DNA of 64,000 nucleotides from Yuukianura sp. NJ FZ-2021. Its lineage: Eukaryota. The stretch is from contig CM102286.1 in the NCBI GenBank assembly GCA_046563655.1, forward strand, positions 7,750,001 through 7,814,000. Direction: 5' to 3'. The notes beneath the pieces were generated by a model, which saw only the letters and a program-made list of their open reading frames with translations, did no database searches and had not been told where the DNA came from. Each line of letters starts with the position of its first letter. Within the stretch, counting starts at the first letter, position 1. Positions 4,024 through 64,000 of the stretch are shown here, in pieces. Both the position numbers and the translations under genes were made by a program.

Positions 4024-5743
4024 ATGGTGTCATTGCGCCATCACAGAGTAAGTTTAAATGAACATTAACTTCCTAGGTTAGCTAAACCCAACACTACACT
4101 AACCATAATAATCCTTTTATTCTCAATTGCTAATGTTATTGTTATTTAGGAACCGACAATAACACCGTTTCCGGATTTCAATCCCTTGGATGACGCTCGA
4201 GCATTAAAGAAACTTCTGAGTTCCCACGACGAAGCTGGTGCAATTAACCTTCTTGCCAAAAGATGTAATCGACAAAGGGAGGAGATCGTCATAGCTTACG
4301 CTGACACCTCTGGGAAGGTAACATATTCTTGCCAAGTAGAAATACCAAAACTAGGCTAACGCAGCCTAGCCTAGCTTTGGATCGTACTGAACCTAATAGA
4401 AAGCATGAGGAGAAAGTTGTGGGGTCGATGTAGTAATGTTTACCCATTTATCTTTGGCTGGGCAGGAACTGCTGCAGGACTTGTCTTCAGTATTCAGCTC
4501 CAAATGCCTCAAAGTATTAAGTGCTCTACTGGAAACACCCGATGAATTTTTGGCTAAAGAGCTAGATAGAGCTCTAAATCGTTTAGGAACTGACAGCGAA
4601 GTCATCTCGGAGGTATAAAAAGAAATCCAATTTTTTCCGTGGAGACAAAGGATTTTTTCTTGATAAACCGACAGCACATGGATAAATGTCAAAAATTGTA
4701 AATCTTCCGTAGATTCTTTGTACAAGATCAAACGCCAAAATTTCTGGAATTCAATTGGCCTACCAAAAACTTTATGGAAAAACGCTCTTGTCCGTAATTT
4801 CATCCGAATTTAATCTATCTGCAGACTACAAAGAACTCATGTCCATGCTGCTACAGGTGATGTTTTAAAATTTTTCAAATTGACACATTAAAGTCATAAG
4901 ATTAGTTTTTAATTACAAAAAATTGCATAGCCGATGAAATTTCGAATGTTTTATTCAAGGGATTGCGCAACGAAGTGAAGGAAACAAGTAAGGAAAAAGC
5001 AAAGCGTCGGGCTGCTTCAGTTCACAGCGCAGGTTTGAAAATCAATTTCAATTTATTCTGAAATGAATATTCAGTGTTATAATCAAATGCTGTTGACTTA
5101 ATTTTATTGATTGGATTGTTTTCCAAAAACACAAAGGAATAATTTTGAATGATTTTAATAGTTGAAGAGGGCTGGAGCACTTCAACCAAAATATTTTTGC
5201 GACTTCTAACACACGAGTCCTTCGACCAACTTCGCCTCGTTTTTGACGAGTATAGATTAATATCGGGACTAGCGATGGAACAAGCAGTCAAATCTGCATT
5301 TTCAGGAGACGTTGAGCATGCCGCCATGGCCATTGGTAAAAAACAGCTTTTTAACTTGCTTGTTAAATAGAAATAATGTTCTACTTCGCCTTTTGCAAAG
5401 CAGCAGTTGAATAATCCTCTGAGGCTTTTATTTTATTGACCATTTCATGACTCCCCGAGCACGTAAAAGTTTTAACTAGGCCATTTTCTGTTGAACTTTC
5501 ACAGTGAAAGCAGCTCTAAACAAAAATCAATTCTATGCAGAGACAATTGAAGCCTCACTTAGAAAATTTCGGAGGGACGACAACACGCTGATTCGAATAT
5601 TTGTGTCGAGGTCAGAGGTTGACCTAGAATCCATCAAGAGTGAGTACCTAAAAATCTACCATAAAACACTCTACCATTCTGTTCAAACGGAAATGAGCGG
5701 TGCTTACAGAGAAATTATGCTCGCACTGCTCAATACGCCTTGA
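4024..5743 (+). CDS. Divergent annexin (7 exons: ~4024-4047, 4150-4317, 4467-4613, 4712-4856, 4960-5032, 5162-5335, 5505-5743)
   Basis: In-frame spliced translation gives four annexin repeats: FNPLDDARAL..R.NRQREEI..AY; A.EL..AL.RLGTD..ILCTRSN; SFDQLRLVFDEY..EQAVKSAFSGD; LIRIFVSRSEVDL..SGAY. Confidence 0.9.
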
Positions 5744-6096: not shown

Positions 6097-7223
6097 TAGG
6101 GGTCGAAATTCGGATTTTGACTTCGGATTCAAATCCGAATTTTTGACGAATCCGAATAATTCGGAATTCGGATTTGACAGCATGCGAATTCGGATTCAGA
6201 CGAATTTGAGACTTAAATAGATGTAGGCGCGAATTTAAATTTTAAGGAGCCTTATTTTCGACGCTAATCGCTAATCGACACGAACCTTGAAATTCGGTTT
6301 GAAGATTTTGAGTGGCGTGGATTGGAAGAACTAGTGGCAGCTCTGGGACCAGTGAAATTGACAGTTGAAGCGTTATGTCGGCGGGATGCTAATTTGCTTA
6401 CCGCTGATTCTGCAATTAATTTTGCGCTTTAACAACTAAATGAAAGGGATTCTGGAATCAGCCTGGAACTTGCCACTGCACTGAGTAACCGAATTCAAGA
6501 ACGTTGCACAACACTCTCTGGCGTTTTACAATACTTACATATTGGATCACTGCAGCAAGATGACAATTAAGACCCAATTTTTAAAATTCCGACAAGGAAC
6601 AGAATCGTCAAGTTCTTGCAGGAAATGACGAAAAAAGTAATAGTCGAAGCAGACGCCGAGCAAGAAATTGAAGTAACTGAAGAACCCCAGAATTTAGCAA
6701 AAAAGAACAAACGCTTACGCACAGAACTGGAATCAAAACTCGACCAGGCATTACATGACGTTTCAAAGCGTGCTCATCGATTCAAAATAAAATCTGGTGA
6801 AAAGGACTTAACGGCAACAATTAAGAAGGAAATGATCATGTTCGAAAATGGCGGTAACCGGGGACTCCATTTGGAGCTCTGCTACAATTTCCTAAAAATT
6901 GTTCCACCAACAACAGCAGTTGAAGCGGAGAGATCATTTTCCTCTGCCGGATATATTTATAACAAAATACGATCACGCCTAAGCGATGACACTTTAGACA
7001 AACTCTGCTTTCTTCGTTCGTATTTTCAGGTTCTCTCAACATTGACGGGTAGTTATAGTGTTCAATTATAAATAAAAGTGTTATTTTTTTTTAATTTCTA
7101 TTATGTAAGGGCGAATTTCTTTAAAAAATGAAATCCGAATCTGAATTCGGATTTTGCCGAGATCAAATTCGGATAAATTCGGAATTCGGATTTGGGCAAA
7201 ACCACCACGAATTTCGACCCCTA
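6097..7223 (+). mobile_element. Internally deleted hAT transposon with a decayed C-terminal transposase
   Basis: Perfect 16-bp TIRs TAGGGGTCGAAATTCG, 8-bp TSD GTCATAAA (6089-6096, 7224-7231), subterminal ATTCGGATT repeats. ORF 6616-7071 carries the hAT dimerisation motif PPTTAVEAERSFSSAG..RSRLSD. In-frame stops lie upstream. Confidence 0.93.
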
Positions 7224-7482: not shown

Positions 7483-10400
7483 TTAACCAGAAGGCGGCTT
7501 CTTCCCACGCTTATGTGTTTGGCCAAATATGTCCATATGACATCGATCCGTTTCCTGAAAGGTTTATGAAGTTGACATTTTGATTTGCAGTTCATCATAC
7601 GAAAATATTTGATTAGGATTTTACCTTCAGCTGGCGCATAAAATCAATAGCTTCCTCATCAGATAAGCTTAGAGCTTCTTTGATCAAGGTTTGAAGTGTT
7701 CTGAAAACGTCTTCCGCCATTGCCGCGTCTCCGCAGATGTAAATAATTGCGTTTTCATCCACGACTTCTCTGACTATTTGGTCTTTATGCTCCAAAATTA
7801 AATCTTGCACGTACGTCTTGCGCAAAAAAAAAATCAAAAGTTAGACATTTCTGCTGATTTGGAAATCATAACGTGTGTCAAATGTTGAAATTTGATTTGG
7901 GCCTAACTTTCTTTTGATGTTTCTCCCTGGAGAAAGCTACAAAATAATTCGTAATGACTTCATCCTTCTGCATCTGCTCTATCTCAGATCCATACAAAAG
8001 CATCTCCTTTGAACGACAACCAAAGAACAAGCTCAGTTTGCCAAGCTCCCTTCCCCCTTCCTTGCGTAGGAAATTTCTTTCTTGCCAAAATCCACGGAAT
8101 GGTGCAATACCCGTTCCGGGACCAACCAAAATAATCGATCGGCCAGTGTCCTGTGGAAGCCGAAAAGTTGAACTGGACGTGCTGAAAACAAAGAAAAAAA
8201 ATTCCAGCATCAACTTAGATCAAAGAAATTAAAAATGACTGAAATTTTTGCCGAACTTCGTTTTTGACTTACTTTCGAACAAAACACATAACTTTAGAGC
8301 CTATGTTTAGTCGATTCAGGTAATTGGAGCATACTCCGTAGTTGGCTTCTGCGTGTCCATTTGGCGTGTACTTTACCACGCCAATGGTCAAATGAAATTG
8401 GTTTGGAAAAACTTTGGATGAGGAAGAGACGCTGTAGTATCGTGGTTGTAATATGGGAAGTAGAGTGCAAATCGCTGCAGCGTCGGGGGAGCAAGATGGA
8501 TGCCATTTCAGAACAGTAAGAAGATTAGGTTGATAAGCTCGTTTCCAGGAATCGTAAAGTGAACCGTCCTAAAAAATCGAAGCAACGTGTTAGCAAAAAC
8601 CATGAATAATTTTATACATAATTTATGGAGAAAGTTTGGATTAGTTTGAGATAAAGTCAAGTTACATTAGAAAGTTTTTGCAAAGCCTCCCCATCTGGTT
8701 CGTTTGTAGCAACTGAAGCCAAGTACGAAAGCATTTCCTGGGAAGGCGGTGTCGTAAAATCTAAAACATTTCCGAAAAGTTCTCTCAATGAGCAAATTGG
8801 AAGCCGCTCAGTCGCCGTCCATTGTCCACCGTGACCTGCGAAAATTACGTTTGGATCAAGTTCACTTTCAATTGTACTAAAAACTCTGTGTTTTACTTCT
8901 GAATTGAAGTTCAACTTGGGTGTCATGCCCTTCTGGTTTGTTTTTCAATTTAGACAAAAGTCCAGTGACAAGTTCTGGGTGGTTTTGTGGCAAGATTCCA
9001 ATGTGATCTCCAACATGATAGGCAAAAGGAGGCACTTCGTCACTACTGGGTGCCTCCAGGACAATCCTTATGGTCTGGACACTGGAAAAAAAAGTGGTTA
9101 GGTTAAAGCTTTCATTGAAGTAGAATTTACCGCTCTTTTTATGACTCCCCTGCACTCACTCGTCTAATGGCTCATGAAGCTGATCCCGTTGCATTAGGCT
9201 GTAAAATGCCAACTTCCTTCCATGCAACTGCTCGTACCCTGGAGATAAACGTTGCGTGAAAAGTTCTCATTAAACTGTTTACTTTGAGCAGAAGCGCGTC
9301 TATTTGCAATGCCAAAACTGACTTGGTAATTGAACGCCGCTGCTCTCCGCTGCAGTCGATAACGCTGCTTGTAGTCTGAAATTTCCAGTGGGAATAGCTG
9401 GAACGACCTGCTCTTTGGCCTCAATTGTTTCAGGTTTCAGCGCGTAGGCGTCGCACGCAGCCTAGTATGTTTCAAATACTCGTAAGAAAATGTGTAAGAA
9501 AAAACTGCCTCTGAGGATAATTCACTTCATTTCTTCTACCTTATAAGCATCGACACACCAACTTTGGAACGTGACCTCTTGACCTTCCAGCTCATCTCCG
9601 CAAGGAACGCTGAGAAGTCGTTGACCTCCGAGTAAATTAAAATTGTAGTCAAGATTTCTTCCAAAGGCACAAATATTTGGGTATGCACTTGACCCTAACG
9701 CGAATACTGCGAATCTAAAATTTTGGCAAATTTTGCAATTTCATTTATAAAAATTTCAACATCGATAGCACTTGAGAAATCGATTTCAATTTTGGGTTAC
9801 CTCAACTGTGTTAGCGGAAATTCATGTTTATTGTCGGCTGCTTTCCGTTGCGATTTCAACTTCGCCAAATACTTGTCCAATGGTTCCCCATTGGCCGGAG
9901 GATCGCCGTTTCCAAATGTTGACGTGATGACAAATAATAATGACTTTTGATGCAGTTGAGACAAATCGTACTGGTCCATTTGATATGTCTTGAAAATATT
10001 TTTTTAAAAATTAAAGTTCCTCAAGAGTAGTGATTTAAAGTGAGACGCACTTTACCCACCTTTGCATGAAACGAATTTTTCAAAACCGATTCCAGCTTTT
10101 GGGCAAACTTCCTTGACTTTCCAGTTTCTGTTGCGTAGAGAATTGTAGCAACTGGACGTGCTCGTAACCGTTTTCCAAACAACATTGAACAAAATGCCAC
10201 ACCCAACGCTATTTCCTTTAAGCTAAGACGTTTGACAGTAGTTTGAGTACTTCCAAGTATATTTGGATTCTTCCAGGTATGCACTTTCCACGCCTGCGCT
10301 TGGTACTCGAAGCTTGGTTTTAGAAAGTACAGAGCCATTTCTTGGTGGAACACTGGCACCGTGGATCCCGAAATTGGCGGTACGATCCAAGCCCAATCTG

Positions 10401-12276
10401 CAGGACATCCTCCGCGTTCTCGCTTTTCTGTTTCCAAATGGCTCATAAACTGTTCGGCTACAGTGTGGTGGTCAATGATTGTCACTCCAGCTTTCTGTGA
10501 AGTAAAATAGAAATTTTAAAGTATTATTCCTGTTTAAAAAACGATTTGTGTTTTTTTAAAGTTCACAAACACGATTTTTATAACTGCTTTCTCATACTAC
10601 CTGAAAACTATGCAAAACAGCAACGTTCATCTCTACCATGGCCTTGTCCTTCCATAAACTGGTCAATGTGTCAGTCCTAAGCCCCATTCTCGTCGCCACC
10701 TCCTAGTATAATTAGTCAATAATTTATCGTAGTAACATATTTATAGTTTTATTAGATCATAGAGGGACCCATAGAGGGACATGCTACGCATGTTCCCTCT
10801 TACCGGCAAATAGTTGTAACGGTCCACGTCACCCAACTCACGCGACGCAATTTCCGGAGCTGTAAACCAGGCGTTGAACGGTGCTGCAGGAAACTGGAGT
10901 CCACCACAATCAAATAGCATGGCGGCCAGGAAGGGTAAAGTGTAAAACCGAATGCCCATGTCTTTGAACCATGGATATCTTACAAATAAATCAAAATGCT
11001 ACAACAGCGTCTCTAATTTTTCCTATTTTGACTTTGTATTGTTTTGTACTTGTAGGAATTTTCAACTTACTCTGGATGTTCTAAATGTACTTCCATGATG
11101 AGTTCTGGAGGGATAATGAAAAGTTCTGGATCGTTTCCATTCGCTGAAACTACGAGTGGCAGTACGTCGAACTTGGTTTTGGGTTCCGGACTTTTCCAGC
11201 CCAATTTTAGACAAATCTGAAAATGGAAAAAAAAATGGAAAATAATAGTTAAAGTGACAAAGCTGAGTGAGCTAAAAATATTAACTCACATTTGTTAGCT
11301 CTTTGTTTATGGAGTGACCGAGGATAGTTCCATCCGGATTTTCGTATCCCGCATACCCGATTATAAAGTGATTCCAAATTCTGAAATCCGGCTTGCCTTG
11401 ACGTCTCACCGGAAAAACTGTGATTGTTGTCCTGAATGTCATAAAGTCAACGGTTTTTTCTATACTTAACCTGCTTTTCATTTCTGCGCTTGTGCAAATC
11501 TTGATTTTTTATTGGAGCTTACACATCTGCAGTACATACCTGATATTCCCACCGTTATTAGTGTACTCCAAGTGCCTACAAATGGCGTCAAACACCTCCC
11601 TCGCTGTAGATATTTTCCTCTCGTCGAGTACCTATATCAAAATATTGTTAATTAGGATTAATTTTGTTTAATAAACTATTTAAAATTCAACTTGAGAAGT
11701 AATGATGAATGATCTTTATATCGATGGAAAGTGGACCTTGATATTTCTCCATTGAATTCTGCCTATGCAGCGAGGAGCATTTCGCCAAGCCAATCGTACT
11801 CCAAAATTCAATTCGGCTTCCGTGAGGTCGTAAGTTCCACTTTCTGCTATTTCATTTTTTACTTGCTGGAAACGCTGTTCAAAATCTTGAGTATGAGTCC
11901 TAAAGTAAAAGGGAAAAAAATTTCAAAATTGTTGAATTAAATCTTAAATACTTTCAAGATACAATGTTCGGTACTAACTTGTCAATTGACTCATAATATT
12001 GCATCAGAAATCCACGAGCGTCATGCTCAACTTCGTCCGGAGGTCGACACTTTGTGTCAACGTTGTTCCTTTTTCCAGCAATTCCAAACGTACTTCCCAA
12101 GCAAACATTGTCCAAGCACTTTCTCTCCTACCATAATGTTTTGATTTATATGGTAATGCAAGGTAAATTACAAAAAAAAAAAACTTATAGTTATAGTTTA
12201 CCTTGTCAACGCGGGCCTTCCGGTTTAGCCTATCAATATCCTGTTCGCCGGACAGATGGTTGCGTAACTTGATCAT
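7483..12276 (-). CDS. Nos: Nitric oxide synthase (oxygenase, calmodulin-binding and FMN/FAD/NADPH reductase domains), ~19 exons, apparently intact
   Basis: Zn motif CLDNVC, heme motif [30 protein letters not shown], CaM helix [69 protein letters not shown] and terminal DIFG. Junctions checked by eye keep the frame. The last exon boundary could differ. Confidence 0.95.
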
Positions 12277-50602: not shown

Positions 50603-53600
50603 TTACTGGCCGTATCTTTGTGGTTGTCTAACGGTTCTACCATGACGAGTAGTGACGATCTTCTCTTCAATCGGTGATTCTTCTTCCACAATAGTCGTCA
50701 GTTTCTTCTGCGGTTCCACTTCGACTTCCTTCGCAACTTCTTGTAGTGGCATCGCAGCTACTTCTGGTAGATCCAGTGACACTTCCAGTGGGTACAAACG
50801 TTGAATGGAGCGGAGTAAGGTTCCCACTGCAGTTTTCACTTTGACGACACGCTTGACTCCGTCCTTTCCCGGGATGATTTCAATGACCTTTGCCAATGGC
50901 CACTCGAGTCTCTTGACATTGTCACTCCCGATGATGACGATGTCGCCCATTTGGATTTCCCGCATCTTTGGCTCTTTTCCGCGTTGAACCAGGAGAGACA
51001 AGTACTCCTTCCTGAATCTGGACTTGATCTCCTCACGAACACGGGTCAGATGACGGAACTGTTTCTGTAGTTCAGGTTCCTTGGGTATGACTTGATCGAC
51101 TTCTGGAAACTGAACTTCTGTGATTTCTTGTAGGAACATGGCTGGTGTCAGGGCGATCAGATCTTCAGAATCCTCAGTGACACAGGTTAGGGGACGAGAA
51201 TTGACGACTGCTTCTGCGTCACACAAGCAAGTTAGCAATTGTTCATAATTTAGTACTCGTTTACCCAAAATTCTTTTGAGGATGTCCTTCACTGATCGAA
51301 TCAGCCGCTCCCAAAATCCTCCCCACCACGGAGATGCTGGAGGATTGAATATCCACTGGATCCGCTTGACTTGGAATTCCTTTTGTATTCGGACCCAGTC
51401 GAGATTAGCAAAGAGGTTGTCTGCTCCTCGGAAGTTCGTTCCATTATCGGAGTAGACTGTTTTGACTCGACCTCTTCTGTTGATGAATCTCTGGAAGCCC
51501 AATATGAAACATTCGGTACTGAGTGACGTTAGTAGCTCCAGATGAACAGCACGGTAGACTGCACAAGTAGCTAGTAGGATCCAAACCTTGTCACCACCCT
51601 TGAGGTACATAGGACCTGCTAAGTCTACGCCCGTCACTTCAAACACTTTGGTAGTGTTCACTCGTGCCCCAGGTAATGTTGGTAGTCCAGTGTCGGCGTA
51701 TGGTTTTGATTGAAAGCGACGACACTTGACACATCTTGAAACGATCTTGCTGACTGCCCGTCTCATCTGGAAGATCCAAAATTTCTCACGGAGTTTTGAA
51801 ATGAGAAACTGAGTTCCTCCGTGACTATTTTCCAAATGAGCTTCTCGAATCAGCTGATCTGTAAATAAATGAGAATTGGGTAAAATTAGTGGTAGTCGGA
51901 AACCAATCGTGTCGTCACGCTCCAGAAGTCTTGTTTTGAGTCTGAGGAGACCGTCAGCATCACGAATGATATGAATTCCTTTGATTATGTCTCCTGACTC
52001 CGGAAATGCTTCTGACTGGACTAAGTGCACAATCTTGTGTTCCGCTCTCTCCAATTCTGGAACCGTCAATGGGCCATTGATTCTTCTGTCCTTTGGACTA
52101 GTAGAGTTGTGAATGAATCGAAGTATGAATCCCATGACGTTAATGTTTTTCTTAAGTGATGAGAATCTTCTGAGGAACCATGGAATGAGAATTTCTGTAG
52201 CAACTGCCGATGTGACAATGCACTTTTTGAGTTCCACATTCACTAAATCCCGATCTGGAGTGAAACTTGAATTCGGCCAGTGCTCCTTCTTTTCCTTTAG
52301 CCATTCGGGTCCTTCCCACCATTTGAATTTTTGTAGTTCTGATGCCGAACATCCCCTTGACGGCAAATCTGCTGGGTTTAAGGTGCCTGGAACGAAACGC
52401 CAATCCTGTGAATTGGTAATTTTTAGGATGTCCCTCACCCGGTTCCCAACAAATGTCCCCCAACTGTTGTCTCCCTGGATCCATGCCAAGGCAGTAGAGG
52501 AGTCGCTCCAGAACGTAGTTTTGATTGAAGACAAGTCCAAGGCGGTTGCCACCGACTTCGTCAGCCTCGCCCCAATGAGACATGCCATGAGTTCGAGGCG
52601 AGGAATGGAAATTGCCTTAATTGGTGCAGCCCGGGATTTTGCTTGGAGTAAATTGATGTTGACTTCCCGCTCGTTTTCACATCTAAGGAAGACGACTGCC
52701 GCGAAGGCCAGTTTGGAAGCATCGCAGAAACAGTGTAGTTGCCAAGTTGACTGGTCTGAGATTCCCCCCGTCACATTTCTTGGAATTTCAATCTCGTTGA
52801 CGGCTCGTAGATCTTCCCACCATGTCATAAATCTTGAGCTGAACGTCTCCGGAAGCTCCTGGTCCCATCCAACTTTGCATGTCCAAGTTTCCTGAAGAAT
52901 CATTTTTGGAAGAACTAGAACTGGGCACAAGTATCCAATGGGATCGAAAATTTTCTGGACACTGGAGAGAATGACCCGTTTTGTAATTGTCTCTGGTGGA
53001 TCACTCTCCTGAAAATCAGAAAATAAAGTGTCTGAGATTAGATTCCACTTCATGCCAAGTACTGGAGTCGCAGTTAACTTGTAGGAGTGACTACTGCCGG
53101 GTTCCAATCCGCACTCCTCGCCAGTGGACGAGTCGACTCTGGAACCCTCCACAGCAGTACACGCCCACTGCCTAAGCTCCATCTTAGCTTCACCTAAAAT
53201 TTCAGTGGATTCAGATTTAAATTTTTGAAATTCTTCCATGGAGTCCACGGAAGTGATACAATTGTCTACGTAAAGACCACGGAGCAAATGAAGTGCTGAC
53301 TGTTTCCGATGGTCCTGAATTTGAGAAATGTGGTACTGGATCACAGCGGCGAGTAGAAATGGGCTCGAATTTACTCCGAACACCACTCTCTTGTGTCGAA
53401 ATGTCACTTGTCGCTCACTGTTGTCACTTTCCCACCATAAAAATCGCAGAACGTCCCTATCACTCTTCTGAACTTCAATCATGAGGAACGCCTTTCTGAT
53501 GTCCGCTGTTACTCCAATTTTCTTGAGACGGAATCGCATCAGAATGGCAGGTAGAAGTTCCAGTAGGTTTGGACCTTTCTCCAAACAATCGTTGAGTGAC

Positions 53601-55924
53601 GGTGAACGACCGCTACGACAAGAAGCGTCGAATACTGGACGAATCGGTGTGGTGAGGCTTCCAGGCTTGATGACTGCACGATGTGGAAGGTAGTATGCAT
53701 TGTTTTTGACTTCAGAATCCGGAACTACTTCAATGACGTCTTCCTGTAGCCAGGATTGAAAAACTTGGTCATACAATTGATACATACCCTTTGACCTCAA
53801 TTTGGCAGTCGTGTTGTAGAGCCTCTTTTCTGCCACAAAGCGATTGTCGGGAATTGTTTGAACGCCTCCGATCCACGGTAGTGCGACTGAGTAACGTCCA
53901 TCTCCGGAGCGAGAAACAGTAGATTTGAATTGGTTCAAGGCCAATTCCTCCTTCTCCTCCTTGGACTGAGCCACTGCCGGGTCTTGAATACCGAGGACGT
54001 CAAGTTCCCATAATTTTGAAACTTCGAAGTTGGAGACAAGTAGAGATGTGACAGTCATACCCACGGTTGACTGTGAATTGAGAGCTCCTACCAATGTCCA
54101 TCCAAACTTGGTTTCGATTGCTGAAATTCCATTGCTCAACTGCTCAATTCGACCTGTAAGTAAAGAACCATAAACGTCAGCGCCGAGCAGCAACTCTATC
54201 TCTGGGGTTCCGCTTCCAAGATCACCAATCCAAATGTTTTTGTCTTTCAATTCTTGAATCCATGCACCAGCTGACAAACGTGGAATATTTCCGCAGATTT
54301 GGTCATGGTCCAGAACGTTGATGGCTTTTTTGAATTGATTCTGGGTCCCCTCCAGGTTGACTTCGTAACTGACGTGTGTTCGACTTTCTGTTGAACAGCC
54401 AAAAAGAATGTGACGGAGTTGAACGGATCCCGTTGGTTTCAAATTCAGCTTCTCCGCCGTTGATTTTAAGATGTAGGAGCGTTGGGATCCGCTGTCGATG
54501 ATTGCTCGAACTTTATGACGTTTCCCTTGTCTCCATACGTTGAGAAGGAGAGTCTGTAGAATGACACGGTTTGAACAGTCAAGACTGGAAAATGCTGACT
54601 GTGTAGATTCATTGGTCTTCTCTTCCTTCTTCTTACTGTTGCCGACATCTGCACACATGACAGTAGGATGTTTCTTTTGGCAAATGAAGCACTTGACTGC
54701 CTTTCTGCAATTTTTCGCAAAGTGCCCCACCTTGAAACATTGACCACATGCTTTCTTGGCTTGAATTCGGCTTCTTCTTTCTTCCAAGGTCAGAGTCTGA
54801 GCCTTGAAACAATTTTGAGTATCATGAGGTTTGTCGCAGAAGAGGCAAAGATTCGACTTCTGTTGTTGACCGGAAAATAATCCTGCAGCGGTCGGCATCT
54901 CTTCGCTCAATTCAGCCGGAGCACCCTTGCGCTCATTTTTGGATGGCTTTTTTGAATTACTTGAAGTGATTCCGAATCCACTTTTGGCCAAACTTCGTTG
55001 TTCTTCGCCTTCGACCTCGTGTCTGAGAAAGGTCATGAGGAATTGAAGCTCGTTCTGTGGTGGTGAGTCTTTGGATCCATCTCGACCGTAGTTACTGCTG
55101 CGTTGCCAGGCTGTGAGAATGTCATCAGGCAGACTGGATTCCACCATGGGATAAAGAAACGTAGCGGTTTGGTCACTGGTAACCCCTAAAGACTCAAGTG
55201 CACGAAGGTGAGTTTCAAGTCGATCATAAATTTTGAGTGGAGTTACTTTGTCACGTCCCTGAATTGAATTTTCAACAACCATCTTAAGTAACTCACGGAC
55301 GTAGACTTGTTTCAAAAGTTTCTCCCTGCCAAATCGCCTTTTCAGTTCCTCGATCGCCTTTTGGTAGTTTGCTGCTGATTGTGGGAAACTGTCAATGACG
55401 TCACGAGCTTTCGATCCTTCGACAGTAGACTGGTAAAGATACTGGAACTTGTCTCCGTCGTCGATGTCTGGATCTTCGTGAATTTTGCCGAATTGTGCCC
55501 AAAATCCAAGCCACTCCCTCAAGTCCCCATCAAACTTCTTAATGGAGATCTTGGGTAACTTGTATTTCTTCTTTGAGTGGGTGTCGGCACTTTCGGAGTG
55601 AGTACTGGAAGCTGAAATAGGAGTGTCACGAGCAGCTGATCTCAGGATGCTGCATTTGATGGTGAGATACTTCTTCTCGTACTCAGCCATACTCTTCTTC
55701 TCTTCATCCAGTGCTTCGTCAGTGACATCTGATTTTGCCATCAGAGCATTGAAAATTTCAGTGTCCAGGTCACGAATCTTCTCCATTTCATTATCCATCA
55801 TTTCCAAGTTGACATGGAGTAAGATCTGATCAGGAACTGGCGTAGCGAGGATAGCGTTGACTTCATTGGTCAAATTGGTAAGTTGACGACGATGGACTCC
55901 CCTCTCTCGAACTTTGTTAGTCAT
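50603..55924 (-). CDS. BEL/Pao gag-pol polyprotein, 1773 aa
   Basis: KLPKISIKKFDGD gag domain, three Cys/His knuckles, protease DSGSQ, RT ADIRKAF..YVDN, RNase H FCDAS..WSDS..NPAD, integrase H..H..CVKC and VDLAG/SDNG/WE. Confidence 0.98.
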   Translation of the reverse strand: MTNKVRERGVHRRQLTNLTNEVNAILATPVPDQILLHVNLEMMDNEMEKIRDLDTEIFNALMAKSDVTDEALDEEKKSMAEYEKKYLTIKCSILRSAARDTPISASSTHSESADTHSKKKYKLPKISIKKFDGDLREWLGFWAQFGKIHEDPDIDDGDKFQYLYQSTVEGSKARDVIDSFPQSAANYQKAIEELKRRFGREKLLKQVYVRELLKMVVENSIQGRDKVTPLKIYDRLETHLRALESLGVTSDQTATFLYPMVESSLPDDILTAWQRSSNYGRDGSKDSPPQNELQFLMTFLRHEVEGEEQRSLAKSGFGITSSNSKKPSKNERKGAPAELSEEMPTAAGLFSGQQQKSNLCLFCDKPHDTQNCFKAQTLTLEERRSRIQAKKACGQCFKVGHFAKNCRKAVKCFICQKKHPTVMCADVGNSKKKEEKTNESTQSAFSSLDCSNRVILQTLLLNVWRQGKRHKVRAIIDSGSQRSYILKSTAEKLNLKPTGSVQLRHILFGCSTESRTHVSYEVNLEGTQNQFKKAINVLDHDQICGNIPRLSAGAWIQELKDKNIWIGDLGSGTPEIELLLGADVYGSLLTGRIEQLSNGISAIETKFGWTLVGALNSQSTVGMTVTSLLVSNFEVSKLWELDVLGIQDPAVAQSKEEKEELALNQFKSTVSRSGDGRYSVALPWIGGVQTIPDNRFVAEKRLYNTTAKLRSKGMYQLYDQVFQSWLQEDVIEVVPDSEVKNNAYYLPHRAVIKPGSLTTPIRPVFDASCRSGRSPSLNDCLEKGPNLLELLPAILMRFRLKKIGVTADIRKAFLMIEVQKSDRDVLRFLWWESDNSERQVTFRHKRVVFGVNSSPFLLAAVIQYHISQIQDHRKQSALHLLRGLYVDNCITSVDSMEEFQKFKSESTEILGEAKMELRQWACTAVEGSRVDSSTGEECGLEPGSSHSYKLTATPVLGMKWNLISDTLFSDFQESDPPETITKRVILSSVQKIFDPIGYLCPVLVLPKMILQETWTCKVGWDQELPETFSSRFMTWWEDLRAVNEIEIPRNVTGGISDQSTWQLHCFCDASKLAFAAVVFLRCENEREVNINLLQAKSRAAPIKAISIPRLELMACLIGARLTKSVATALDLSSIKTTFWSDSSTALAWIQGDNSWGTFVGNRVRDILKITNSQDWRFVPGTLNPADLPSRGCSASELQKFKWWEGPEWLKEKKEHWPNSSFTPDRDLVNVELKKCIVTSAVATEILIPWFLRRFSSLKKNINVMGFILRFIHNSTSPKDRRINGPLTVPELERAEHKIVHLVQSEAFPESGDIIKGIHIIRDADGLLRLKTRLLERDDTIGFRLPLILPNSHLFTDQLIREAHLENSHGGTQFLISKLREKFWIFQMRRAVSKIVSRCVKCRRFQSKPYADTGLPTLPGARVNTTKVFEVTGVDLAGPMYLKGGDKVWILLATCAVYRAVHLELLTSLSTECFILGFQRFINRRGRVKTVYSDNGTNFRGADNLFANLDWVRIQKEFQVKRIQWIFNPPASPWWGGFWERLIRSVKDILKRILGKRVLNYEQLLTCLCDAEAVVNSRPLTCVTEDSEDLIALTPAMFLQEITEVQFPEVDQVIPKEPELQKQFRHLTRVREEIKSRFRKEYLSLLVQRGKEPKMREIQMGDIVIIGSDNVKRLEWPLAKVIEIIPGKDGVKRVVKVKTAVGTLLRSIQRLYPLEVSLDLPEVAAMPLQEVAKEVEVEPQKKLTTIVEEESPIEEKIVTTRHGRTVRQPQRYGQ

Positions 55925-56131
55925 CTTTGGACCTTAAAATAACTCAGCAGAAAGTACTGAATTAGAAAATGGTAACTTTCTAGAAGATAACCGGAACGTA
56001 TTCACCTTAAGTACCCCCGAATGCTCAGGGTAGGGCCCACAAAGTGGCAGGACAGAAGGTGAATGATGAACTTGATCCGATCCTGTAGTCTCCTACGGCT
56101 GTCTGTTACCTCCGCTCAAAGGGTCACCAAA

Positions 56132-61255: not shown

Positions 61256-62791
61256 TTAGTACAGTTCTGTTGGAATGGACTGCGGCTGGTTAAAGAAATT
61301 GTTAGGGTCATATTTCTTTTTGACCTCAACAAGACGTGGAAGGTTCGTTCCATAATAACGTTGCAAAGCATTTTCCAATCCTGTATCGACAAAACCTGGA
61401 AAAGAAGCATTGTGATCAAAGATTTCTTTTCCAACATCAAAGAATTTGTTCAAATATCCTCCAATTTCATTATGAAATGTTGTGTTTCCCAAATCTTGAT
61501 CACGGTGTTCAGCAACAATGTTGTAAAGTGTTCCAGTTCTGTGTACAAATGCAGTTGCATCATTTGGAATTTCATTTATTGCTCCTCCGTAAGCTTCAAA
61601 AAATATTACAATGGCTCTCGGCATTTCGTCAATGAGTTTGTAAAATTTCTGGATTCCAGCTTCATCAATTTCCTTATTTACATAAAATACTTTTTGTTGT
61701 CGAAAAACAATATCTTTCGATTTCCGTTCAATTCTTTTCAAATCCGAAGGCACATCAAGAGTGTATCCAGGAGAAAACAGTTCCAGTGCAAAAACTTTTG
61801 CACTCCGATACATAAATTCTTCATGTGACAAAAATTCTTTGGATTCTTTTCTATCTGGCGGAAATTGTTTTGAAATTTCTTCAAAATTATCACTTTGTCC
61901 AGTTGAATCTACAAACACCATGTCGATCCTGTCTTTGTAATAATCAAATTCGATTGCCAAATCTTTTGGAGCGGTGAGCACAATACGTTGCCACACGCGA
62001 AACAACTCTGGAAAACGTTCAGGCGTATAAGTCAGTATTCCAAGGAAAGTTGGATCTGGAGCGGGATAAATTTTGAACACAAATTTTGTAACAATTCCAA
62101 ACGAAGAAGCTACGCCTCCGCGTAGAGCCCAAAATAAGTCCGAATTTTTATGTTCATTGACGACTAATGGCAGACCTTGAGCTGAAACCATGGTCATTTC
62201 AATAATATTGTCACTCATCAATCCATATTTTCTAACGTAGAAACCAACTCCACCTCCAGTAGCTGCTCCAGCGACTCCCATAGTTGGGCAAACTCCGTAT
62301 GGCGTAAACACTTTACCTTGTTCCCAAAGATCCCAGGCCAATGGTGAATTTAAATATCCCGCCCCGATAGTAGCCGTCATTGTGTTTTTATCGATTTTCA
62401 ACATTGTCAATTTTTTGACATCGACAATTACAGAGTTGGCGTCACCGAATGAAAATTTTTCCAGGGAATGTCCACCTCCTTTTGGAACAAGGCGAATGTT
62501 AAATTCTCTTGCGCAAATTACAGTTGTCATCACATCTTGGTCGCATTCGACAACAATGTAGGCCATTGGGCACTTGTTTCCAAAATTTGCTTGCCATTGG
62601 TAGTTCAATTCTTTGTAAATTTGAGGAGAATCCTTTTCAGTCACAATGCTGGAAGGTTTCACGCCAGCATTAGTTAGGCAAGTAGCAAACAAACTGTAGT
62701 CACCTTGGCTTGGACTTGCTCTGGTTGCATAAATTGTTACTCCAAAATTATACAAAAGTGATACGAGAAGGCTGGTCAAAGCTAAAACCAT
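61256..62791 (-). CDS. Secreted FAD-linked oxidase, berberine bridge enzyme (BBE)/AA7-like, intronless, 511 aa
   Basis: Hydrophobic N-terminus, KGGGHS (FAD-linking His), GVCPTMGVAG (second FAD-linking Cys), GGGVG..RKYGL.SDN, DLFWALRGG..SFGIVT, and C-terminal YYGTNLPRLVEVKKKYDPNNFF..PQSI. Confidence 0.93.
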   Translation of the reverse strand: MVLALTSLLVSLLYNFGVTIYATRASPSQGDYSLFATCLTNAGVKPSSIVTEKDSPQIYKELNYQWQANFGNKCPMAYIVVECDQDVMTTVICAREFNIRLVPKGGGHSLEKFSFGDANSVIVDVKKLTMLKIDKNTMTATIGAGYLNSPLAWDLWEQGKVFTPYGVCPTMGVAGAATGGGVGFYVRKYGLMSDNIIEMTMVSAQGLPLVVNEHKNSDLFWALRGGVASSFGIVTKFVFKIYPAPDPTFLGILTYTPERFPELFRVWQRIVLTAPKDLAIEFDYYKDRIDMVFVDSTGQSDNFEEISKQFPPDRKESKEFLSHEEFMYRSAKVFALELFSPGYTLDVPSDLKRIERKSKDIVFRQQKVFYVNKEIDEAGIQKFYKLIDEMPRAIVIFFEAYGGAINEIPNDATAFVHRTGTLYNIVAEHRDQDLGNTTFHNEIGGYLNKFFDVGKEIFDHNASFPGFVDTGLENALQRYYGTNLPRLVEVKKKYDPNNFFNQPQSIPTELY

Positions 62792-64000
62792 TCTAATTTT
62801 CTACAAAAGGAAATTTTTTGAAAAAAAAAAAACTTCGGGAAAAATGATTCTCAAATAGTTTACTATTTGACTAAAATAGATATCGGTCATTGCAAGCGAC
62901 TTTGTAAAGATTTGAAACACACTTTTTGTAGTAAGAACAAAAGGAATTGTTCAAAATAAGTAACCCAAGGTTATGGAAAGTTTTCGAAATCGATTATGCC
63001 AAAGCATAACTCAACTTAGTATTGCCTAGGCACAATGCAATGCCTTTATTCAGTAATCCGCTTCTGCGCATGCGACGTTTTAAATTTGACTAGGGCTTTT
63101 AAATTGGATTGGACCTTGTCTCTACGGAGCCTAGAAATAACTAATTGGATGAGGCTCTTAGGAAGTAGGAAAAGACAAGGCGGATTTAAGCTTAGCCTTT
63201 TGCCTGGAAATGATGATGGACAGCAAGACAAGAGCATTGAGTTGGCTAGGGAAAGTGGAATGCTGCCCAGCACTTTTGGGGTTGGTGCATTTTGCAGTAG
63301 TGTTAAGGCAGCTAAGTGGAGGCTGAGAGAGCTCCAGATCATATATCTATCTCTCGTGTAATCTTCTTATCTGTCCAGAAGGGCCTGGGATCCTAGTGAA
63401 GGGCCAGTCTCTCTAAAAAGAAAAAGTCCACCATCAACAATGTGCGGAGGGGAAAGTGGAAAAGAGAAAGTGGCGGGAAAAGTCTCGACGGGTCAATTTT
63501 TGAATAATGAGAATTTACGAGGACCTATTTTTATGGTGACGGAGAATAATAAGGGAAGTGGAGGAGAGAAAGTAAAATCTCCAGAGGTTTACACATTTTT
63601 TAGCTTTCTCGGCACAGCAGAATTTTTTGGCTCGTAGAAAACTGTGGTATTCTTGCGTTATGAAAGGAACGAAGGATATTTTTTTTGGTTCAAAATGGCT
63701 TCACATAATAATAATAATATCTTTTCCATTCCAAAAGGGAAAGGAAGACTTTTGGAAAAGAAAATTTTGGTGGTGTTGTCGCTGTGTGCCAGTCGTTAGT
63801 TTATTCCAACTGGAGATATTCTGGAGAGTGTGCAAGTAAATCATGATGAACGCCGTCGCGAATATTGTAGGTCTCCATATCCTGCTTATGTGGAATAAGG
63901 AAGGGAAAGGCGCATGAATAGGCGGAGAAAGCAGGAAAAGTAGCTTTCTCCTTTTCTCATTTTATATAATGCCACTTTACACGATTTCTCAAGGGAATTT

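Follow-up and report, generated by a model that had tools for sequence, protein, structure and literature searches.

A rebuilt arginine pocket in an intact nitric oxide synthase gene of Yuukianura sp. and two metagenomic relatives

The nitric oxide synthase (NOS) family is treated as a single-substrate family. In rat neuronal NOS (nNOS) numbering, which is used here for pocket positions, the substrate carboxylate is hydrogen-bonded by Gln478, and Asp495 and Pro496 lie in the shell behind Gln478 and Arg481. According to the available part of PMC6120233 (Olsbu 2018), Glu592 holds the guanidine, the Tyr588 hydroxyl hydrogen-bonds the α-carboxylate, mutations of Tyr588 strongly alter substrate binding, and Val567 is part of a Phe/Pro/Val hydrophobic pocket. 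The same text describes the oxidation of non-amino-acid alkylguanidines to nitric oxide (NO) by mammalian NOS, with chains that curl toward Gln478 and Val567 and pack on the Phe/Pro/Val pocket. It also presents an active site that varies very little between the three mammalian isoforms and from which bacterial NOS depart mainly through a Val-to-Ile exchange (PMC6120233). Here, a NOS gene is described from a 64,000-nucleotide stretch of Yuukianura sp. NJ FZ-2021 (assembly GCA_046563655.1, contig CM102286.1, positions 7,750,001 to 7,814,000), hereafter the window. The pocket of this gene has two counterparts in a single metagenome, L001 (Ga0194135_10112437, partial) and L002 (Ga0194135_10003693). 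The window gene is read as an intact and selected member of a small animal NOS clade nearest, on present evidence, to springtail NOS. This clade retains the cofactor machinery and the guanidinium clamp but has a remodelled site for the amino-acid end of arginine, with a carboxylate-free guanidine as the likely preferred substrate. This composite account, which rests on sequence comparison, is given about an even chance of being right.

Pocket residues were assigned rat nNOS numbers by ungapped offsets to 1om4_A and 8t1j_A. In HMMER searches against solved NOS chains, exon 7 of the window gene aligns without gaps to 81 distinct Protein Data Bank sequences (E ≤ 0.001; 1om4_A positions 254–312), and exon 5 aligns without gaps to 80 distinct sequences (1om4_A 162–206; full-length NOS1 8t1j_A 458–502). 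The window carries Phe182 at the position of Gln478, Gly185 at Arg481, His199 at Asp495, Ser200 at Pro496, Phe267 at Trp561, Phe272 at Ala566, Leu273 at Val567, Ala275 at Asn569, Ala292 at Gly586, Phe294 at Tyr588, Thr295 at Met589, Pro297 at Thr591 and Glu303 at Asp597. The α-carboxylate anchors Gln478 and Tyr588 are thus both absent, with Phe at the two positions in the window, L001 and L002. The distal wall, too, departs from that of an L-arginine-dependent NO synthase (EC 1.14.13.39): it retains Pro271 (Pro565) and Phe290 (Phe584), but carries Leu in place of Val567 in each of the three genes and, in the window only, Ala in place of Gly586. The guanidinium clamp is retained as Trp293 (Trp587) and Glu298 (Glu592), both of which are invariant in 100/100 homologues and in all three clade members. 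Arg302 (Arg596) is also kept, and the pterin-site residues (Arg302, ADWAWIVPP and VFHQEM) are present in the window and conserved in L001 and L002.

Several of these assignments had been proposed in a preliminary description of this DNA. The four pocket motifs that it reported are present as written on minus-strand exons, the first motif and GHSIN in exon 5 and the other two in exon 7, and the span that it gave (10804–11432) covers exons 5–7 with an upper end one base too long. The replacement of Gln478 by Phe, Tyr588 by Phe and Val567 by Leu is reproduced by the ungapped alignment to NOS chains and is common to L001 and L002. The features that were said to be kept (haem Cys, Trp587, Glu592, Arg596, the Trp678 pterin site, the Zn site and the reductase motifs) were all located. 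Gly586 to Ala and Asp597 to Glu are genuine in the window but are not found in L001 or L002, and hence they fall outside the conserved rebuild.

Conservation of the pocket was evaluated in two comparison sets. The first set comprises 101 full-length animal NOS, in which Gln478 and Asp495 are each retained in 101/101, Trp561, Val567 and Gly586 in 100/100 and Tyr588 in 99/100, and Glu592 and Arg596 are invariant. The Asp597 position is split between Asn (50) and Asp (50). The four commonest states at the Arg481 position are Ser (72), Gly (13), Ala (6) and Met (3), and Arg is not among them. Because Ser and Gly are common and Arg is unconserved at this position, Gly185 is ordinary for an invertebrate NOS, and the earlier listing of Arg481 to Gly as a departure is withdrawn. 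The second set was obtained by an HMMER search of 1.84 billion representative proteins with exon 7, which returned 619 matches at E ≤ 0.001 with a top identity of 62%; 146 sequences were aligned among the best 150 of these matches. Tyr588 is Tyr in 140/146 of them. The residue of the window is found in 0/145 at position 561, in 0/146 at positions 586 and 597, in 1/146 at position 566 (Phe), in 6/146 at positions 567 (Leu) and 588 (Phe), and in 5/146 at position 589 (Thr).

The pocket change exceeds both chance and general divergence. Changes are observed at 9/14 pocket columns in the window versus 0–1/14 in nine other NOS; these 14 columns were selected after the motifs had been seen, and the count was repeated with the whole of exons 5 and 7 as the unit. 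In these two exons, 15/46 conserved columns are changed in the window, compared with 16/122 in the remaining oxygenase (Fisher p=0.005). The enrichment is present in all three clade members (15/46, 13/46 and 13/46; p=0.005–0.007), and the nine comparators show 0–5/46. Four of the nine comparators are as divergent as the window overall, with 15.5–15.9% of conserved columns changed versus 16.6%.

Relatives that share the rebuild are found in metagenomic DNA. No orthologue was detected among the longer proteins of a 5.8-billion protein set (best identity 59%) or among the best 150 exon-7 matches of the 1.84 billion representatives (best 62%). The lead came from a search with exon 9 among short proteins, in which a 156-residue exon open reading frame (ORF; P0404) was matched at 64% identity. 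Six peptide patterns from P0404 identified 89 relatives, of which the best 80 were taken as metagenome loci. One or both pocket motifs are visible in 54 of the 80 loci, and only L001 and L002 have the rebuilt form, with the motifs LPLLSAM and FNGWFT(A/S)PEIASRD. L002 is a complete, stop-free gene with short introns, and each of its 19 exons has its counterpart in the window model. An annexin gene is positioned tail-to-tail with the NOS gene in L002 as in the window, and the two annexins are 61–88% identical in amino-acid sequence per exon. The shared annexin arrangement therefore identifies the window and L002 NOS genes as orthologues in different species. Amino-acid identity is 65.6% between the window and L002, 70.1% between the window and L001, and 76.6% between L001 and L002. 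Each is ∼50% identical to canonical NOS, and the named NOS most similar to the window protein is that of Allacma (49%).

The three genes, which are the only rebuilt-pocket members known, share the derived states Q478F, D495H, P496S, A566L/F, V567L, Y588F and M589T at conserved columns. They also have in common N569A, T591P and G594A, F to L at 205, A to T at 162, and E to M in RYHEDIFG. In the loop after the haem Cys, K, L and Q are replaced by N, I and K, so that SKLQ reads RNIK in all three sequences. W561F, G586A and D597E are private to the window.

In the phylogenetic tree, the window, L001 and L002 form a clade with a Shimodaira–Hasegawa-like approximate likelihood ratio support of 100%. 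The stem of the clade is long (1.15 changes per site), and its tips (0.31–0.46) are close to the median of all tips (0.42). A first tree had placed the window on a branch of 1.52 beside other long branches (P0163), probably through long-branch attraction, and was replaced after L001 and L002 were added. The position of the clade is unresolved in an unconstrained quick search. A search that held the clade with springtail NOS (Allacma, Orchesella and the canonical contigs L003, L023 and L004) yielded a tree better by 58.5 log-likelihood units (approximately unbiased test, p=0.989). An origin in the springtail lineage is the best current reading of the sequences, as the best tree found and not as a proven clade. 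The canonical springtail-type contigs L003 and L023 come from the same metagenome as L001 and L002 and are not assignable to the same organism. The rebuilt gene is a candidate neofunctionalised paralogue.

By homology, the gene belongs to the NOS family. The predicted spliced model extends on the minus strand from 12276 to 7483 and consists of 19 coding exons and 1082 codons without an internal stop (Table 1). Exons were located by tblastn with three full-length NOS, junctions were then searched for GT/AG pairs, and the model was refined by protein-to-genome spliced alignment with five canonical NOS queries and the orthologue L002. All introns are GT-AG and 61–108 nucleotides (nt) in length. 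Pfam searches of the exon ORFs matched NO_synthase, FAD_binding_1 and NAD_binding_1. PF02898 is matched by exons 5, 7 and 9 (E values of 2e-13, 6e-19 and 1.5e-27, respectively), PF00667 and PF00175 are matched in the reductase, and the tblastn matches of the three NOS queries span the reductase. A single chain contains, in order, the oxygenase, a predicted basic-hydrophobic linker of the calmodulin (CaM) type, and the flavin mononucleotide (FMN), flavin adenine dinucleotide (FAD) and reduced nicotinamide adenine dinucleotide phosphate (NADPH) domains. The predicted protein has no PDZ domain, a short FMN insert without a long autoinhibitory loop, and a short C-terminal tail, and it reads RCHMDIFG where the canonical sequence is RYHEDIFG. 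With 19 exons, no stops and the FMN, FAD and NADPH motifs in place, the earlier proposal of an intact NOS with a whole reductase is confirmed.

Contigs from a DNA run of a second organism (X5), ∼2.6% diverged from the window, provide a closer comparison, for which 40 of the 111 substitutions and 12 of the 20 insertions and deletions (indels) are listed. A first gene model with an acceptor at 9149 had enclosed a run of eight T within an exon, where a 1-nt deletion in X5 appeared as a frameshift. This acceptor was rejected on the evidence of the spliced alignment and L002, which define an exon at 9238–9160 and an acceptor at 9081. At 11061–11135, a second contig in both the X1 and X5 runs matches 75 nt that correspond to the 3′ end of exon 6 and 10 nt of intron. 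The second contig of X1 (15,066 nt) has 10 mismatches over these 75 nt, and the flanks on both sides are unrelated. A fragmentary duplicate and a closer paralogue are both possible sources of this second match.

Selection was assessed from codon comparisons. Between the window and L001 or L002, the proportion of synonymous differences (pS) is 0.78–0.88, at which synonymous sites are saturated, and the proportion of non-synonymous differences (pN) reaches 0.236 in the reductase, as against 0.155 in the oxygenase domain and 0.141 in exons 5 and 7. For the shared derived residues, the three genes use different codons (ACA, ACC and ACT for Thr589; CCG, CCA and CCT for Pro591; CTG, CTC and TTA for Leu567), which shows selection at the amino-acid level. 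A ratio of non-synonymous to synonymous rates (dN/dS) near 1, which the preliminary description had named, in combination with a lack of expression, among the results that would refute its proposal, is not seen: synonymous sites are saturated against a low pN, and the derived residues are held across three genomes. In this codon record, the rebuilt pocket is a selected state and not decay.

A decaying or recently silenced copy, with an open frame that survives by chance, is accordingly a very remote prospect in our estimation. Pseudogene signs (stops, frameshifts or lost splice sites) were not found in the 19 window exons, which keep consensus splice sites over all 1082 codons, and the orthologue L002 is equally intact. 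Decay is also at odds with synonymous saturation at a pN of 0.16–0.24 and with the placement of the X5 indels. Among those listed, 9/9 with a length that is not a multiple of three occur in introns, and the exons hold two indels, each of 3 nt (p∼4e-5 if placed by length alone). The location of the gene in repeat-rich DNA, beside a ribosomal DNA (rDNA) unit and transposon remnants, would be in keeping with decay, as would the comparison with X5 in one part of the reductase. This part, 8261–9466 in the FAD domain, is the only stretch for which all X5 differences are listed; its exons contain 11 non-synonymous and 9 synonymous differences, and its introns contain 12 differences in 337 nt. The resulting ω between the two close genomes is ∼0.39 (p=0.03 against neutrality).

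This ω value is also the first of several points that weigh against a selected clade with a new substrate, in that it indicates only moderate recent constraint. The stretch from which it derives lies in the least conserved part of the reductase. Constraint is stronger in the NOS genes of Daphnia, for which Dn/Ds values of 0.10–0.14 are given in the available part of PMC2724039. Moreover, the listed X5 differences lie outside the pocket exons, a region in which 24 gap letters of a single X5 contig are unclassified. The window-private changes G586A, W561F and D597E could be slightly harmful substitutions. Finally, single anchors are sporadically replaced elsewhere. In other uncharacterised metagenome NOS, Gln478 alone is replaced, by Ala in L003 (Ga0194135_10000608, springtail-type and canonical in other respects), by Leu in L019 and L031 and by Phe in L068; L068 and L069 read GWYSLPEI where GWYMxTEI is usual. 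Such isolated changes at Gln478 (Ala, Leu or Phe) and at Tyr588 (Phe) indicate that neither residue alone is absolutely required for a NOS gene to be retained in a genome.

The function proposed for the rebuilt enzyme combines a conserved catalytic apparatus with an altered substrate preference. Electrons would still be supplied by its own reductase, oxygen would be activated at the pterin-assisted haem, and the guanidinium group would still be positioned on Glu592. With both direct hydrogen-bond donors to the α-carboxylate replaced by Phe, the carboxylate end of the pocket would become hydrophobic, while an acidic residue at 597 is kept. The distal wall would be bulkier, and the window-private Gly586Ala, Trp561Phe and Asp597Glu would narrow the distal pocket further. 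Because both carboxylate donors are Phe and the distal wall is bulkier, the preferred substrate would most likely be a guanidino compound without an α-carboxylate, such as agmatine, an alkylguanidine or another decarboxylated guanidine; oxidation of this compound may yield NO or a related N-oxide. Free arginine is probably no longer processed by this enzyme as it is by other NOS. A switch of the physiological substrate across the clade, from free L-arginine to a guanidine lacking the α-carboxylate (agmatine or another decarboxylated or alkyl guanidine), is proposed more tentatively and falls somewhat short of an even chance.

The same residues would also be compatible with an ordinary L-arginine NOS, possibly the only NOS of the lineage. 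Glu592, Trp587, the haem propionate and the residue at 597, which is still acidic, would then hold arginine in place, and the lost hydrogen bonds would only raise the Michaelis constant or alter the kinetics, for example by slower NO release through Leu567. The whole catalytic and cofactor core is indeed kept, and neither Leu567 nor Phe588 is confined to the clade, each being found in 6/146 representatives; bacterial NOS with Ile at 567 remain arginine users according to the available part of PMC6120233. However, single substitutions of this kind differ from the pattern in the clade, where at least eight conserved pocket and second-shell columns changed together and were then fixed across three genomes, and equally divergent NOS keep all of those columns. 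Both direct carboxylate donors are now hydrophobic, and mutations of Tyr588 alone are described as strongly altering both binding and oxidation in the available part of PMC6120233. A retained arginine-oxidizing role is therefore considered rather unlikely, though it is a serious competitor to the carboxylate-free guanidine.

A more radical departure, in which guanidine oxidation has been abandoned, is considered improbable. The protein could then serve as a regulatory heterodimer partner of a canonical NOS, as a reductase-driven haem enzyme (an NO dioxygenase or a superoxide or peroxide generator) or as a haem-based sensor. The distal pocket is narrowed by Leu567 and by Leu or Phe at 566, with Ala586 added in the window, and the loop after the haem Cys is remodelled from SKLQ to RNIK in all three genes; this loop includes position Lys423, which has been linked to the transfer of electrons from FMN to haem. 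The reductase is retained, as are the dimer and Zn elements. The strict retention of Glu592, Trp587, Arg596 and the pterin-site residues in all three genes would sit poorly with a loss of guanidine chemistry, and oxidation of a carboxylate-free guanidine is preferred here over these roles.

Table 1. Positions of the NOS exons and of the adjacent annexin gene in the window
Feature	Position	Strand	Remarks
Exon 1 (aa 1-25)	12202..12276	-	ATG at 12276; no PDZ upstream in the model; start of L002 identical in kind; from junction search and spliced alignment
Exon 2 (aa 26-75)	11979..12127	-	Zn-site CxxxxC (CLDNVC, 12118-12101): Cys29 12118-12116, Cys34 12103-12101
Exon 3 (aa 75-129)	11737..11899	-	Haem Cys (Cys415) at 11769-11767 in a WRNAxRCxGRxxW-type loop, followed by RNIK versus canonical SKLQ
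Exon 4 (aa 130-160)	11540..11631	-	
Exon 5 (aa 160-207)	11290..11431	-	Phe182 (Gln478) 11367-11365; Gly185 (Arg481); GHSIN with His199 (Asp495) 11316-11314 and Ser200 (Pro496)
Exon 6 (aa 208-256)	11071..11216	-	
Exon 7 (aa 256-314)	10804..10978	-	Leu273 (Val567) 10929-10927; Phe294 (Tyr588) 10866-10864; Glu298 (Glu592) 10854-10852
Exon 8 (aa 315-348)	10601..10702	-	
Exon 9 (aa 349-493)	10060..10494	-	Oxygenase end, CaM-type linker (aa 436-458), FMN-domain start (LYATETGKS)
Exon 10 (aa 494-556)	9801..9988	-	FMN domain; short insert before RFAVFALG
Exon 11 (aa 556-614)	9540..9714	-	FMN domain (FALGSSAYP)
Exon 12 (aa 615-661)	9323..9461	-	Connecting region
Exon 13 (aa 661-687)	9160..9238	-	Small exon, GTGAGT donor; T8-CCAG acceptor belongs to the next intron; same exon in L002
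Exon 14 (aa 687-749)	8897..9081	-	FAD-binding domain start
Exon 15 (aa 749-805)	8666..8835	-	FAD-binding domain
Exon 16 (aa 806-904)	8273..8568	-	FAD-binding domain
Exon 17 (aa 904-995)	7908..8181	-	NADPH-binding domain; alternative acceptor 8172
Exon 18 (aa 996-1059)	7625..7816	-	YVQD, YICGD
Exon 19 (aa 1060-1082 and stop)	7483..7554	-	RCHMDIFG, short C-terminal tail
Annexin gene	4150..5743	+	Tail-to-tail with the NOS gene

The NOS gene is flanked by a variety of other elements. A C-terminal remnant of a hAT transposase is located between the NOS and annexin genes at 6571–7071 on the plus strand. Beyond the annexin gene, C2H2-type zinc-finger-like exons are found at 1459–2760 on the minus strand; these are recognized from ORF translations only, with no Pfam match at E ≤ 1e-4. 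Just upstream of the NOS start, positions 12970–13900 form a GC-rich, strand-symmetric stretch of low complexity. Both strands are open in several reading frames there; the translations abound in Ala, Cys, Pro, Gln, Leu, Arg and Gly, and the short word PAAC recurs. A complete rDNA unit occupies 21357–27877 on the minus strand, ∼9 kb upstream of the NOS gene, and is composed of the small subunit (26067–27877), 5.8S (25589–25740) and large subunit (21357–25282) regions in repeat-rich surroundings. A Tc5-type helix-turn-helix remnant lies at 33897–34193 on the minus strand.

Two further minus-strand genes are located in the distal part of the window. At 50603–55933, a Pao/BEL retrotransposon polyprotein is encoded without interruption over 1776 residues and includes peptidase A17, reverse transcriptase, integrase zinc and DUF1759/DUF5641 domains; the element is probably young. 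At 61256–62800, a single-exon gene encodes a 514-residue FAD-linked oxidase with FAD_binding_4 and BBE domains. Its best matches are contigs at 43–44%, followed by sciarid-fly genes named ‘chitooligosaccharide oxidase-like’ (34%) and bacteria (∼30%), and it looks like an acquisition from microbes.

No account of an animal NOS that carries these substitutions came up in literature searches, including one with the four peptides. With the machinery for oxygen activation and the guanidinium clamp preserved and both carboxylate anchors gone, the clade constitutes a natural experiment on the substrate specificity of NOS. The gene is also a clonable candidate for a new guanidine-oxidizing activity or for a new source of NO in invertebrates. 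If the proposed function is correct, the NOS family would gain a second natural reaction, and these animals would have a further, distinct way of producing NO or a related signal. Rebuilt-pocket NOS escape protein databases, as their exons are left uncalled on metagenome contigs, and more of them may exist.

Judging partly by Tyr588 in 140/146 of the aligned representatives, bacterial NOS retain both Gln478 and Tyr588, and their substrate is L-arginine. Their Val-to-Ile switch resembles the clade in placing a bulkier aliphatic residue at 567 beside the haem, but the clade has Leu instead of Ile, together with changed carboxylate anchors. The bacterial Ile is reported to slow NO release in the available part of PMC6120233. 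Daphnia NOS1 and NOS2 offer a parallel in an arthropod lineage, where an extra, faster-evolving NOS copy is under purifying selection, and they differ from the window gene in that the available part of PMC2724039 reports no altered pocket.

Canonical metazoan NOS (rat nNOS 1OM4, NOS1 8T1J and Allacma fusca P0047) share with the window protein the domain order, the haem Cys loop, Glu592 and Trp587, Arg596, Trp676 and Trp678, the Zn-site CxxxxC, and the flavin and NADPH motifs. In contrast to these proteins, the window replaces Gln478, Tyr588, Val567, Ala566, Asn569, Met589, Thr591, Asp495 and Pro496. It also has RNIK for SKLQ and RCHMDIFG for RYHEDIFG, and it lacks a PDZ domain and a long FMN insert and ends in a short tail. 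Engineered nNOS mutants at Tyr588 (Tyr588Phe) and Val567 are reportedly the subject of work by Sato in 2001 and Giroud in 2010. These mutants are altered at the same two positions as the clade. However, they are single laboratory substitutions in a mammalian background, whereas at least eight natural changes are fixed together across species in the rebuilt pocket.

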